Position numbers and translations under genes: made by a program. DNA of 43,532 nucleotides from NCBI GenBank assembly GCA_023251975.1, contig JAHEXU010000003.1, positions 1 to 43,532 of the forward strand, in the 5' to 3' direction. The notes under the pieces were generated by a model. It worked only from the letters and a program-made list of their open reading frames with translations. It made no database searches and had not been told where the DNA came from. This document shows, piece after piece, positions 24,131 through 37,450 of this stretch; the first letter of the stretch is position 1, and every line of letters starts with the position of its first letter. The DNA comes from a bacterium (GTDB lineage: Bacteria > Actinomycetota > Thermoleophilia > Solirubrobacterales > 70-9).

Positions 24131-27100
24131 GTGACATCCTCCTCTGCCGCCGAGACGACACCGCCCGCCCAAGCCCCGCGCCCTGGGCAGCTTGCCCGTG
24201 TCCGCGGCCGGCAGTGGGTTGTCGCCGATGTCGCGGCTGACTCTCAGGCCGAGCTCGACGGGCGCCGGGTCCAGCACCTCGTCTCCCTGATCTCCGTCGA
24301 GGATGACGCGACGGGCGAGCAGCTCGATGTCGTCTGGGAGATCGAGCCGGGCACGCAGGTCGTCGAGCGGGCCGAGCTGCCCGAGATCGCCGCCGACAAG
24401 GTCGACGACCCGGCGATGCTCGATGCATTCCTCGATGCGGTGCGCTGGGGTGCGGTGACGAGCGCCGATCAGCAGGCGCTGCAGGCGCCGTTTCGCAGCG
24501 GGATCACGATCGAGGACTACCAGCTCGAACCGCTCGTGCGGGCCCTGCGGATGCCGCGTACAACGCTGCTGATCGCCGACGACGTCGGCCTCGGCAAGAC
24601 GATCGAGACCGGTCTTGTCATCCAGGAGCTGATCCTGCGCCATCGCGCCCGAACGGCCCTCGTCGTCTGCCCCGCCAGCCTGCAGGTGCAGTGGCGCGAC
24701 GAGATGCGCGAAAAGTTCGGCCTCGAGTTCCGGATCGTCAACCGCGATCTGCTGAGCGAACTCCGCCGCGCCCGGGGGGTGGGCGCGAACCCGTTCGCGC
24801 ACTATCCGCGCCTCATTATCTCGATTGACTGGCTCAAGGGCGACCTCGGAATGCGACTACTCCGCGAGGTTCTCCCACCGACCCCAGAGATCCCGCGGAC
24901 CTACGACGTGCTCGTGGTCGACGAGGTGCACAACTGCGCCCCCGCCGGCGCAGGCGGCCGCTATGCCCGCGACACGCTGCGCACCGCCGCGATCCGCACG
25001 CTCGCGCCGCACTGCGAGCACCGGCTGTTCCTGTCGGCCACGCCGCACAACGGCTATGACAACTCGTTCGCCGCCCTGCTCGAGCTGCTTGACCCGCACC
25101 GCTTCGCGCGCGGGATCAAGCCGACGAAGGAGGCGACGCGTGAGGTCACCGTCCGCCGCCTGAAATCCGAGCTCGTCAACGAGGACGGCACCCCTCGCTT
25201 CCCGAAGCGCAGGATCGTCCCGCTCGAGGTCGAGCACCCGGAGAGCGAGCGTGCCGTCCATGCGAACCTCGTTTCCTACGGACAGGTACGTTCCGCGCGG
25301 CTCGGCGGCGGGGACCCATCGGCGCGGACCGCGGCCGATTTCGTAGTGACGCTGCTGAAGAAGCGGCTCTTCTCTTCGCCCGCGGCGTTTCTGCGCACGC
25401 TTGAGGTTCATCGCGACACGCTCACGCGCGAACGGCCTGCTGCCCCGGCACCGGCAGTCAAAGTGCTCCGACAGCTCTTCGACGACGCCGACGCCTCAAT
25501 CGACGACGAGCGCGACGAAGATGGCGTCGGCGAGATCACACGCGAGGCAATCGAGGCGGCCGCACTGACCGAGCGCAGCCGCCCGAGTGCGGAGGAACTC
25601 GCACTTCTCGAGCGCATGCATGAGTGGGCCTCGCGCGCAGCGCGCACTGAGGACGCCCGCACAATCGTGCTCCTCGACTGGGTCGAAGGCCACGTCAAAA
25701 CCGGAAGCCAGTTCACCGACGAGCGCGTGATCGTGTTCTCCGAGTACCGCGCGACCCAGCGCTATCTGCAGGAGCGCCTCGCCGCCCGCGGCATCGCCGG
25801 TGATCGCGTGGAGCTGCTCGACGGAACGACCCACCCTGAGGAGCGCGAGCGCATCAAGAGCCAGTGGCAGGAACCCCCGACCGACTACCCGGTCCGCGTC
25901 TTGCTTGCAACTGACGCCGCCTCCGAGGGCATCTCCCTGCAGAAGCAGTGCCACCTCCTCGCACACGCGGAGATCCCGTGGAACCCCAACCGGCTTGAGC
26001 AGCGCAACGGCCGCGTCGATCGTCACGGGCAGCCCGCACCCGAAGTTCTGGTCCACCACTGCGTGAGCCAGGGTTGGCAGACCGAAGGACGTGGATCGCT
26101 CGAGGGCGACCTCGACTTCCTCGCCCGCGTCGTGCAGAAGGTGGAGCAGATCCGCGAGGACCTCGGCAGCGCCGGACCCGTTATCGCCTCCCAGGTCGAG
26201 GAGGCGATGCTCGGTCGCCGCACGAGGCTCGACGAGAGCCGCTTCTCCGGCGCCGCCGCGTCCCGGGCGCTGCTCACGCAGGAACGGCGGATGCGCGAGC
26301 GCCTCGCCCATCTGCGCGACGAGCTCGCCGGTGCCCGTGAGACGCTGCACCTGCACCCCGACCGAGTCGAGCGGGTCGTCCGCACCGCGCTCTCACTCGC
26401 CCGGCAGCCGCCACTCGACCCCGGGAAGGAGCCGGGAACGTGGATCGTCCCGGCATTCACAGGCAGTTGGAACGACTCGACTCGAGGCCTCGAGCATCCG
26501 GCCCGCCCCGAGCAGCGTCGCCCGATCACGTTTGACCACGAACTCGCGCGCGGGCGGACCGACCTCGTGCTCGCCCACCTCGGCCACCGGTTGGTGCGAA
26601 TGTCGCTCGGGCTGCTGCGCGCCGAGGTGTGGGGCGCCGAGAATCGCCTGCGTCGTGTCGCGATGCGCTACGCACGCCGCGAGCTCGGTGGCTACCCGGT
26701 CGCGGTGGCGCACGGGCGGCTCGTCGTAACGGGCGAGGCCGGACACCGCCTCCACGAACAGCTCGTCTACGCCGCCCTGCGACTCGAGCCGACCGGACCG
26801 CAGCGGCTGAGCCTCGAGGAAGCCACCGCGGCGCTCGCGACGGCGCTCGAGGCCCCGGTCCCGGCAACTCTGCGCGCGCAGCTGACGCCACGCCTGGCCG
26901 ACGAAGCCGGGGCGCTGCGTTCCATGCTGACCTCCCGCGCTGCCGCTCGCGCCGGCAACCTGCGTGCAACCCTCGAACGTCGCGCGCATGATGAACGGCA
27001 GCGGGTCGCAAAGACTCTCGAGGAGCTCGCCGCGACGATCCGGCGCGAAGCACTGGGTGAAGACGGGGCGCAGATGCAGCTCATCACCGGCCTCGAGCTG

Positions 27101-27280
27101 GATGCAGGCGATCGCCGCCAGGTCGAGCGCGACCTTGAGTCCCTCCAGGCACGGCTCGATGCGATTCCGGACGACATCCAGGCCGAGCAGAAAGCGATCG
27201 AGCGCCGGTACGCCAATCCCACCCACCGGATCTTCCCCGCTGCCGTGACGCTCCTCGTCCCCGAAGGCGCGGCTCTGTGA
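24131..27280 (+). CDS. drmD: SNF2-family helicase, DISARM DrmD-like
   Basis: 1049 aa. Motifs read directly:
- DYQLEPLVRAL
- ADDVGLGKT (GLGKT 24587-24601)
- VVCPASL
- VVDEVHN (DEVH 24920-24931)
- FLSATPHNG
- LLATDAASEGISLQ
- QRNGRVDRHGQ (26000-26032)

First gene of five overlapping genes. Confidence 0.9.
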   Translation: MTSSSAAETTPPAQAPRPGQLARVRGRQWVVADVAADSQAELDGRRVQHLVSLISVEDDATGEQLDVVWEIEPGTQVVERAELPEIAADKVDDPAMLDAFLDAVRWGAVTSADQQALQAPFRSGITIEDYQLEPLVRALRMPRTTLLIADDVGLGKTIETGLVIQELILRHRARTALVVCPASLQVQWRDEMREKFGLEFRIVNRDLLSELRRARGVGANPFAHYPRLIISIDWLKGDLGMRLLREVLPPTPEIPRTYDVLVVDEVHNCAPAGAGGRYARDTLRTAAIRTLAPHCEHRLFLSATPHNGYDNSFAALLELLDPHRFARGIKPTKEATREVTVRRLKSELVNEDGTPRFPKRRIVPLEVEHPESERAVHANLVSYGQVRSARLGGGDPSARTAADFVVTLLKKRLFSSPAAFLRTLEVHRDTLTRERPAAPAPAVKVLRQLFDDADASIDDERDEDGVGEITREAIEAAALTERSRPSAEELALLERMHEWASRAARTEDARTIVLLDWVEGHVKTGSQFTDERVIVFSEYRATQRYLQERLAARGIAGDRVELLDGTTHPEERERIKSQWQEPPTDYPVRVLLATDAASEGISLQKQCHLLAHAEIPWNPNRLEQRNGRVDRHGQPAPEVLVHHCVSQGWQTEGRGSLEGDLDFLARVVQKVEQIREDLGSAGPVIASQVEEAMLGRRTRLDESRFSGAAASRALLTQERRMRERLAHLRDELAGARETLHLHPDRVERVVRTALSLARQPPLDPGKEPGTWIVPAFTGSWNDSTRGLEHPARPEQRRPITFDHELARGRTDLVLAHLGHRLVRMSLGLLRAEVWGAENRLRRVAMRYARRELGGYPVAVAHGRLVVTGEAGHRLHEQLVYAALRLEPTGPQRLSLEEATAALATALEAPVPATLRAQLTPRLADEAGALRSMLTSRAAARAGNLRATLERRAHDERQRVAKTLEELAATIRREALGEDGAQMQLITGLELDAGDRRQVERDLESLQARLDAIPDDIQAEQKAIERRYANPTHRIFPAAVTLLVPEGAAL

Positions 27281-36705: not shown

Positions 36706-36706
36706 C

Positions 36707-37450
36707 GTGGACCTCGAGGCGGCGGTTCATGTGCTGCTCGAGCGCCTCAGCGAGACGCAGATCGACACCTTTGCGGCCATCGCCGCCAGCCACGACCAGC
36801 CGCCGGCCGCGTTTGCGGGTGTTGTCGCGGGCGGGTCACCGGGGGCGCAGCAGGCCGTTAATGACGTGCTCGCTGGTTGGCGAGCGGAGCCCGGGCTGAC
36901 CGGTACCGGGCTCGCGCTCGCGCTGCGCATCGGCTCGCGACTTCGCCGGCAGGCGGTCGAGCGGCGCAGCACGCCGGTGTGGACGGGGCCAAAGGCCGTC
37001 GGCGAGCGCCGCCTGACGAGCGGGACCCTGCACGGGCTGCTCGTCCAGGCCAAAGAGCGAATCCTTCTTGTTAGCTACGCGGCCTACGCGCTTCCCGAGG
37101 TCGCCGACGACCTCGCCGCCGCAGCCGCGCGCGGCTGCGCCGTCGACGTCGTTTTCGAGACCTCAGCCGACGGCTCGGGATACGACGGGCCGTCGACGGC
37201 CTTCGACGCAGTAGAGGGCCTACGGCGCTGGCGCTGGCCCAAGGGCAACCGCCCGCCGGGGGCGTCGCTCCACGCGAAGCTGCTGGTGATCGACGGCCGG
37301 CGCGCTCTCATCGGGTCGGCCAACCTGACGAACTCCGCGCTGACTCGCAACCTCGAAGCTGGCCTATTGGTCCGCGACGAAAGCGTCGCAGCAGACCTCG
37401 AGCAACACGTGCGCGATCTCATCACCAGCGGCGTCCTCTGCCCGAGTTGA
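36707..37450 (+). CDS. drmC: phospholipase D superfamily (single HKD, Nuc-like) nuclease, DISARM DrmC-like
   Basis: GTG start 1 nt after the drmB stop. HKD motif HAKLLVIDGRRALIGSANLTNSAL (37271-37324). 247 aa. Confidence 0.87.
   Translation: MDLEAAVHVLLERLSETQIDTFAAIAASHDQPPAAFAGVVAGGSPGAQQAVNDVLAGWRAEPGLTGTGLALALRIGSRLRRQAVERRSTPVWTGPKAVGERRLTSGTLHGLLVQAKERILLVSYAAYALPEVADDLAAAAARGCAVDVVFETSADGSGYDGPSTAFDAVEGLRRWRWPKGNRPPGASLHAKLLVIDGRRALIGSANLTNSALTRNLEAGLLVRDESVAADLEQHVRDLITSGVLCPS

Follow-up and report, generated by a model that had tools for sequence, protein, structure and literature searches.

A probable class 1 DISARM operon of five genes in the chromosome of an uncultured Solirubrobacterales bacterium

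Five large genes stand head to tail on contig JAHEXU010000003.1 of the actinobacterial assembly GCA_023251975.1, of which we analyzed positions 1 to 43,532 (this whole stretch of 43,532 nt is called the window below). [quoted passage not shown] A first-pass annotation, made from the sequence alone, had read the block as class 1 DISARM on the basis of its gene content and order, drmD-drmMI-drmA-drmB-drmC, and this assignment was borne out by the PADLOC and NCBIfam models and by matches to the solved structure 7S9V. We conclude with high confidence that the block represents a complete, chromosomally encoded class 1 DISARM operon and that its host is an uncultured member of the Solirubrobacterales. 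The cassette is thus reported here as an ordinary copy of a known anti-phage system, and not as a new kind of system. Its genes are as follows.

24131-27280, + strand: drmD, 1049 amino acids (aa)
27277-31308, + strand: drmMI, 1343 aa
31301-34903, + strand: drmA, 1200 aa
34900-36705, + strand: drmB, 601 aa from the GTG at 34900 (maximal open reading frame from 34654)
36707-37450, + strand: drmC, 247 aa from the GTG at 36707 (maximal open reading frame from 36371)

Family assignment and gene calls

In PADLOC, the best model for each protein was DrmD, DrmMI, DrmA, DrmB and DrmC, in the expected order. Curated NCBIfam cut-offs were exceeded by four of the proteins (models DISARM_DrmD, DISARM_DrmAS, DrmB_fam and DISARM_DrmC_I); DrmMI reached no DrmMI model in that collection. 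DISARM and its class 1 have been defined by the Pfam domains PF00271, PF09369, PF13091 and PF00176 (bioRxiv 10.1101/2021.12.28.474362), and all of these scored above their gathering scores here. Of the five genes, drmA, drmB and drmC make up the DISARM core, and drmD and drmMI, which precede it, are those of class 1. For motif conservation, homologues were extracted from 72 related loci and aligned, giving 15-61 homologues per protein. The motif residues were nearly all invariant among these homologues and every checked motif was present in the window proteins, including all those that the first-pass annotation had quoted for the five open reading frames (ORFs); the helicase motifs are intact, rather than degenerate, on alignment. 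Judging from the intact ORFs and motifs, the cassette may be active.

The five co-oriented ORFs lie on the + strand within 13.3 kb, and the ORF list gave exactly the coordinates and lengths first described for them. Neighbouring genes overlap by 4 nt (GTGA) at the drmD/drmMI junction, by 8 nt at drmMI/drmA and by 4 nt (GTGA) at drmA/drmB, and 1 nt separates drmB from drmC, in agreement with the earlier description of starts and stops that overlap or sit 1 nt apart. The overlapping junctions suggest co-translation. Since antisense ORFs reach 418 aa in the 68-70% GC DNA of the window, ORF length alone is not evidence of coding; we consider the five ORFs to be real genes because of their homology and their GC content at third codon positions (GC3), which is 0.83-0.85 inside each gene, with GC2 at about 0.5. 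The upstream extensions of drmB and drmC have a non-coding pattern (GC1/2/3 of 0.93/0.73/0.55 and 0.49/0.87/0.71, respectively), and independent gene calls on a metagenome contig in ENA with near-identical DNA (L073; 1 mismatch in 9158 nt) gave proteins of 601 aa and 247 aa. Codon-position GC and these gene calls together support the shorter starts of both genes. We found no frameshifts or internal stops in the five genes. No credible terminator was found beside the operon, no Rfam family was detected across the whole window, and an exact-sequence look-up of DrmD returned no record.

The five proteins and their known relatives

The domains and motifs discussed in this section are located as follows.

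24578-24601, + strand: Walker A (DDVGLGKT) of DrmD
24914-24934, + strand: DEVH motif of DrmD
26000-26032, + strand: motif VI (QRNGRVDRHGQ) of DrmD
about 27277-27921, + strand: MmeI_N-like region of DrmMI
28915-28932, + strand: GTYYTP motif of DrmMI
29065-29094, + strand: S-adenosylmethionine (AdoMet) motif DIAMGSGAFL of DrmMI
29875-29889, + strand: catalytic motif GNPPF of DrmMI
30340-30891, + strand: MmeI-type target recognition domain of DrmMI
31454-31621, + strand: putative acidic trigger-loop equivalent of DrmA
32756-32791, + strand: Walker A of DrmA
33524-33565, + strand: Walker B (DELH) of DrmA
34283-34309, + strand: motif VI of DrmA
34781-34801, + strand: pivot-arm SLRNVEA of DrmA (equivalent of Serratia R1294/V1296)
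36520-36621, + strand: C4 zinc motif of DrmB
37037-37414, + strand: phospholipase D (PLD) domain of DrmC
37271-37330, + strand: HKD motif of DrmC

DrmA is a YprA-like superfamily 2 (SF2) helicase of the "short" form. It scored 1314 bits with the NCBIfam equivalog DISARM_DrmAS (cut-off 950), 998 bits with the PADLOC DrmA model and 30.9 bits with Pfam Helicase_C (PF00271; cut-off 23.5). The only solved structures matching DrmA and DrmB are those of the Serratia sp. SCBI DrmAB complex, obtained by cryo-electron microscopy (7S9V/7S9W), and both matches are almost full length; DrmA residues 13-1177 aligned to residues 136-1308 of chain 7S9V_A with E = 5e-302. Walker A, RYTLRLLTLQQFQRA, Walker B DELH and motifs III, V and VI are present and are conserved among 55 homologues, and the SF2 signatures first noted by eye (GGGKT, DELH and QATSRVGRR) are all there. 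Mutagenesis of the Serratia protein showed that the DNA contacts K803, R810 and R1294 and the proposed base or methyl sensor V1296 matter (PMC9142583); the equivalents of K803, R1294 and V1296 are kept in the window protein as K680, R1162 and V1164. Residues ~52-107 form a poorly conserved 56-residue acidic segment (16 D/E against 5 K/R) that aligns to the Serratia trigger loop, residues 176-232, where the homologues are acidic too. By position and composition, this segment is a putative trigger-loop equivalent.

Because the alignment starts at residue 136 of the Serratia chain and the DrmA reading frame opens just 9 nt upstream of its ATG, which overlaps the drmMI stop, we consider about 125 N-terminal residues to be absent from the window protein. 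In class 1 DrmA this region is an EVE-like domain, a predicted reader of modified bases (10.1101/2025.09.15.676423), and no homologue of the Deinococcus DrmA N-terminus was found anywhere in the window. Lack of this domain is not unusual, nor is the domain a defining feature of class 1. NCBIfam holds separate "short" and "long" DrmA models, the window protein fitting the short one, and in an exhaustive DrmA search of 1.84 billion representatives (7516 matching at E <= 0.001 and 2858 at E <= 1e-30) both forms were frequent among the best full-length hits, taken from the best 150 representatives.

DrmB is the OB-CON-DUF1998 (MZB) zinc-binding partner of DrmA, as judged by NCBIfam (DrmB_fam, 668 bits, cut-off 240), PADLOC (DrmB, 244 bits) and the PDB, in which residues 3-598 matched chain 7S9V_B with E = 1.6e-179. 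The placement of 34900-36705 in DUF1998 proposed at first pass is supported by PF09369 (49.7 bits against a cut-off of 24.2, 6e-13) and by the cysteine-rich C-terminus quoted there: the motif CHACQFASETSC is present, and the checked cysteine columns are kept in at least 57 of the 61 homologues. All four DUF1998 zinc cysteines of the Serratia protein are conserved, and there are further cysteine/histidine clusters. DrmC is a single-HKD nuclease of the phospholipase D family, again as had been proposed, with 67.5 bits to Pfam PLDc_2 (PF13091; cut-off 27, 1e-18), a further match to PLDc, 185 bits to the NCBIfam equivalog DISARM_DrmC_I (cut-off 133) and 154 bits to PADLOC DrmC; its PDB matches, PLD4 exonuclease and Nuc (1BYR), are weak. 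Its N-terminal ~100 aa lie outside the PLD domain. The motif HAKLLVIDGRRALIGSAN is present and follows the pattern HxK(x)4D(x)6GSxN, in which H, K, D, G, S and N are invariant in 15 homologues.

DrmD is an SNF2/RapA-like ATPase in which motifs I, II, III, V and VI are intact and conserved in 24 homologues (GLGKT, DEVH, SAT and QRNGRVDRHGQ were all recovered). It scored 1247 bits with the NCBIfam equivalog DISARM_DrmD (cut-off 610), 1293 bits with PADLOC DrmD and 38.4 bits with Pfam SNF2-rel_dom (PF00176; cut-off 24.9), with a further match to Helicase_C, and its nearest solved structures are those of RapA (E = 1e-26). The PADLOC model PDLC02572, which is labelled "DrmA", also matches DrmD over its full length at 1066 bits and is absent among the hits of the real DrmA; its label looks inconsistent with the content of the model.

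DrmMI is a predicted gamma-class N6-adenine DNA methyltransferase of the MmeI/Eco57I (type IIL/IIG-like) lineage. The PADLOC model gave 1656 bits over the full length, and the Pfam families Eco57I (5e-23), MmeI_Mtase (1e-12), MmeI_TRD (1e-10) and N6_Mtase exceeded their cut-offs; pfam13659, which belongs to the original DISARM definition, was not among the DrmMI hits, more specific families having taken its place. The methyltransferase motifs YYTP, MGSGAFL and NPPF that had been noted by eye are all present, and GTYYTP, the FxGxG-type AdoMet motif DIAMGSGAFL and NPPF are conserved in 27 homologues. No significant match to an MmeI helicase-spacer domain was found in the protein. Programmed inversions of a kind that would make DrmMI phase-variable have been described (PMC9881135). 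We considered such an arrangement here and set it aside, as no long inverted repeat in the window involves the target recognition domain region.

Homology to the MmeI N-terminal domain (MmeI_N, PF20464) extends over the first ~215 residues of DrmMI; the domain was detected in 33 of 36 DrmMI homologues (best E = 2.4e-8) and only at E = 0.14 in the window protein itself. In MmeI this region is an active PD-(D/E)xK endonuclease with the residues D70-X9-E80-X-K82. The corresponding PD...ExK positions read RPT...VHELP here, against RPD...VQxYP for the family consensus, with T107, H121 and L123 in the putative catalytic columns where the consensus has D, Q and Y. As these positions are not conserved, a working nuclease site in DrmMI is unlikely. 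AlphaFold2 models of the N-terminus were confident (predicted local distance difference test score of 90.5 for residues 1-540 and 88 for 1-215). Two Foldseek runs on them returned nothing significant, the best matches of the model of residues 1-215 being the PD-(D/E)xK nucleases MGME1 and RecU with non-significant E-values of 0.13-0.44, and a profile search of the N-terminus against the PDB gave one marginal methylase match and no solved MmeI chain. We infer that the DrmMI N-terminus is probably a vestigial, catalytically inactive nuclease-like domain, which fits DrmMI acting as a methylase only.

The class 1 system of Serratia sp. SCBI (7S9V/7S9W; bioRxiv 10.1101/2021.12.28.474362; PMC9142583) has the same genes in the same order as the window. 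Walker A and B, motif VI, the equivalents of K803, R1294 and V1296 and the four zinc cysteines are conserved between the two, both have a single-HKD DrmC, and the window protein carries an acidic loop of ~55 aa at the position of the trigger loop. They differ in that the Serratia system has a sixth gene, the cytosine methylase drmMII, and its DrmA has the first ~125 residues (the EVE-like domain; 10.1101/2025.09.15.676423) that the window DrmA lacks; its host is enterobacterial, whereas ours is an actinobacterium of 68-70% GC. Since drmMII is absent from the window, the system there has five genes and not six: tblastn with one DISARM-linked C5 cytosine methylase (the drmMII family, pfam00145) and one Vsr as queries found nothing in the window below E = 1, and no GC3-supported ORF in the window matched a C5 methylase family. 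Class 2 DISARM (Bacillus paralicheniformis; drmE-drmA-drmB-drmC-drmMII) shares the DrmA-DrmB core with the window, and Bacillales loci (L039-L063) are 36-42% identical to it in DrmA and 32-37% in DrmB; however, class 2 has a 5-methylcytosine methylase and neither drmD nor drmMI, the reverse of what we observed. Type IIL enzymes of the MmeI family have the MmeI_Mtase, MmeI_TRD and Eco57I domains in common with DrmMI, and MmeI_N in common with its homologues, whereas the PglX models of BREX gave DrmMI scores of only 24-30 bits (cut-offs 500 and 900). Two further candidates were rejected. A fused architecture, with a single YprA-like protein plus OB-CON-DUF1998 and closest to Druantia DruE, does not apply, as the helicase and DUF1998 are separate genes here and DrmA is closest to DISARM DrmA. 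For the Dpd system (DpdE and DpdJ equivalogs), the DpdE score of the first protein was 175 bits against a cut-off of 500.

Competing explanations and a possible mechanism

A structurally intact operon may nevertheless be a relic that is silent or decaying, has lost its expression or its protective effect and is surrounded by degraded mobile-element genes. Such debris does flank the block, in the form of a truncated PIN gene (21399-21632), an IS1182 remnant (23420-23573) and, after drmC, ~750 nt in which no gene is recognisable, and a sigma-70 scan, which may not suit this phylum, found no promoter-like site upstream of drmD. However, an unselected block of 13 kb would be expected to gather stops, whereas the 13.3 kb of reading frames are uninterrupted, with every catalytic motif intact, a strong coding GC3 signal and overlapping start/stop junctions retained, and we therefore regard a relic as quite improbable. 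It is also conceivable that DrmA and DrmB constitute a housekeeping DNA-repair helicase of the YprA/MrfA type and that the genes next to them are unrelated, given that MZB/DUF1998 is named after the repair helicase MrfA and that the YprA family includes repair branches (10.1101/2025.09.15.676423). We attach next to no weight to this explanation, as NCBIfam models specific for DISARM proteins were matched above their cut-offs and the block of five genes is conserved as a unit in different phyla. Related Solirubrobacterales genomes moreover lack the block at the syntenic position, a pattern that fits an accessory rather than a housekeeping function.

Several features could alternatively point to a different helicase-methylase system that merely resembles DISARM, such as ARMADA, Dpd, BREX or a restriction-modification enzyme of type IIG/IIL that has helicases as neighbours. 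The first protein also matches BrxHII, DpdE, HmaA and RapA models, DrmMI has a full-length match of 919 bits to the PADLOC model REase_MTase_IIG and weak matches to PglX models, and PGAP names the Deinococcus homologue of DrmMI "type IIL restriction-modification enzyme MmeI". The DISARM models nevertheless score far higher than those of DpdE and PglX, and DrmMI does not conserve the catalytic residues of an MmeI-type nuclease. A YprA helicase that is split into DrmA and DrmB is a signature of DISARM (10.1101/2025.09.15.676423), and DrmA matches its Serratia counterpart with the extreme E-value given above. We consider such a system highly unlikely.

Certain observations do count against the reading that we favour. 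Two parts of the Serratia model system, the EVE-like domain and the second methylase, are missing here, and the promoter scan was negative, as noted. R810 of Serratia, which belongs to a set of four DNA contacts at which mutations lowered defence (PMC9142583), corresponds to E688 in the window DrmA, in a column that is variable across the family. Furthermore, defence by the Serratia system depended little on methylation and withstood the deletion of single genes (bioRxiv 10.1101/2021.12.28.474362; PMC9142583), so that even there the parts played by DrmD, DrmMI and DrmC are not settled.

For the class 1 DISARM operon that we favour, a mechanism can be proposed by homology with Serratia sp. SCBI (bioRxiv 10.1101/2021.12.28.474362; PMC9142583); what the window itself provides is the conservation of the parts. 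DrmMI would deposit N6-methyladenine (m6A) on host DNA at a short asymmetric motif. DrmA and DrmB would associate 1:1, and the acidic trigger loop (DrmA ~52-107) would prevent the complex from binding DNA until the loop is displaced by incoming or replicating foreign DNA that exposes single strands or a 5′ overhang. DrmA would then load through sequence-independent contacts with the backbone and hydrolyse ATP, and methylation of the base that is wedged against the conserved valine (V1164, in SLRNVEA) may damp activation. DrmD, as an SNF2/RapA-like translocase, and DrmC, as a PLD nuclease that is probably a homodimer, may assist; drmC was dispensable in both DISARM systems in which it was tested (bioRxiv 10.1101/2021.12.28.474362; PMC9142583). 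As the window system has no cytosine methylase, self-marking, if there is any, would rest on m6A alone.

A class 1 subtype with a short DrmA and no cytosine methylase is common in metagenomes. One could speculate that such a "minimal" subtype, with m6A as its only mark and a vestigial nuclease-like domain in DrmMI, tells self from non-self in another way than the Serratia model does, an idea that we put forward tentatively and hold to be rather doubtful. If it were true, the subtype might rely purely on DNA-end structure, sensed through the trigger loop, and give m6A a minor part, and the dead nuclease-like domain of DrmMI might act as a DNA sensor or as a docking module for DrmD or DrmAB. As a clean example with five genes, m6A only and a short DrmA, the locus could serve to ask if self/non-self discrimination requires the EVE-like domain and the second methylase. 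Its practical value is modest and by itself it opens no new question; it adds one intact class 1 DISARM from a soil lineage that has been little studied (Solirubrobacterales, Thermoleophilia). Naming of such genes by NCBI's PGAP is already automatic, and PGAP and PADLOC would annotate this locus in the same way.

Distribution among relatives and genomic surroundings

The five-gene order recurs, in related loci, in more than 20 genomes of several phyla. It was found in metagenome-assembled genomes (MAGs) of Solirubrobacterales and in Conexibacter sp. S30A1 with protein identities of 49-75%, and at 31-57% identity in Planctomycetota, Chloroflexota, Acidimicrobiales, Gammaproteobacteria and others. 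The Solirubrobacterales loci (for example NZ_CP097127.1 of Conexibacter sp. S30A1, designated L033, and the MAG loci L001, L005, L006 and L008) resemble the window in gene order, in having a short DrmA and in having no cytosine methylase within 10 kb. Identities to them were 70-75% for DrmD, 62-69% for DrmMI, 64-69% for DrmA, 62-68% for DrmB and 49-60% for DrmC. In contrast, their flanking genes are entirely different from those of the window, and none of 15 flanking proteins of the window has a homologue next to DISARM in the 72 related loci. Some relatives carry inserted genes: in L033 (7967-9963) and L007 an AAA_21/AAA_15 ATPase and a DUF4276 protein are encoded as a pair between drmMI and drmA, and in L002 a PIN-domain gene (5466-5942) lies between drmD and drmMI. 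The window operon has no inserts of these kinds.

Plasmid-borne copies are already annotated by PGAP as drmD, drmA and drmC, and a Deinococcus plasmid has the same gene order. On that plasmid (p96k of Deinococcus sp. AJ005; L074), a long DrmA is encoded and genes for a Vsr endonuclease and a C5 cytosine methylase follow drmC directly. The same two genes directly follow drmC in L031, which encodes a short DrmA. We considered whether the EVE-like domain co-occurs with drmMII, a rule that L074 fits and L031 does not. Because of the short DrmA in L031, the accessory methylase is not strictly tied to the EVE-like N-terminal domain.

The left 12 kb of the window consist of a conserved backbone, nusA-infB-nrnA-truB-ribF-pnp-M16 peptidase, in which the polynucleotide phosphorylase (PNPase) encoded by pnp shares 77-80% identity with Solirubrobacterales proteins. 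This places the locus in a chromosome, and the earlier description of the host as a high-GC genome of actinobacterial type agrees with this PNPase. In a comparison with L075, L076 and L077 (PNPase 80% identical), the backbone of two relatives continued after the M16 peptidase gene with dapB-amidase-dapA-RNase J, none of which was found in the window after 12098, where synteny stops. Consequently, 12.1-43.5 kb, at least 31 kb with DISARM included, is a lineage-specific variable region. The synteny comparison suggested at first pass thus showed the block to be absent from the corresponding position in relatives, but did not recover an "empty site", as the relatives diverge right after the M16 peptidase gene.

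From left to right, the variable region contains genes for a P450 and for TetR and HxlR regulators, genes for a Rieske dioxygenase (19213-21109), a Phd antitoxin with a truncated PIN, a ribbon-helix-helix (RHH) and PIN pair, the IS1182 remnant, DISARM, ~750 nt without a recognisable gene, a small ORF with a PIN pair partner and a CoA-transferase operon (from 38860). The first-pass annotation had spoken of an island full of toxin-antitoxin modules and gene debris. Three PIN-type toxin-antitoxin modules or remnants, the IS1182 remnant and the end of synteny at 12.1 kb agree with this description, but no second defence system was found in the window, and no integrase, tRNA or compositional (GC) step was found around the cassette. 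Between 20.5 and 39.5 kb there were likewise no convincing bounding direct or inverted repeats, the longest being 35 nt at 66-71% identity. An island is therefore plausible, with undefined edges. Two remnants guessed by eye, of a P450 gene at 23738-23908 and of RelE/ParE at 37447-37632, found no support. The remaining features of the region are listed below.

12920-13798, + strand; 13977-14555, - strand; 17877-18734, - strand; 20968-21354, - strand: ORFs with coding-like GC3 (0.72-0.83) and no significant Pfam family
21399-21899, - strand: Phd/YefM-type antitoxin fragment and truncated PIN (21399-21632)
22213-22928, + strand: putative VapBC-like pair of an RHH/HicB-like antitoxin and a 139-aa PIN protein (22509-22928)
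23420-23573: IS1182-family transposase remnant
38198-38356, + strand: 52-aa ORF, overlapping the next
38353-38784, + strand: 143-aa PIN protein

The first of the toxin-antitoxin loci (21399-21899) is a truncated remnant, as judged by a Phd match of 29.3 bits (cut-off 29.8) and a PIN match that covers only positions 61-119 of the 120 in the profile. In the putative pair at 22213-22928, the antitoxin matched with E = 3e-4 to 0.02 and the PIN protein with 23.3 bits against a cut-off of 23.6, and GC3 is weak over parts of the pair. The IS1182 remnant, which lies 560 nt upstream of drmD, consists of ~150 nt that are 73-82% identical to plasmid transposase genes, one of them annotated as IS1182; no intact transposase is present. 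Finally, 38198-38784, ~750 nt downstream of drmC, looks like a toxin-antitoxin pair of the VapBC type, in which the PIN protein has a Pfam match of 7e-10 and the small ORF has none.

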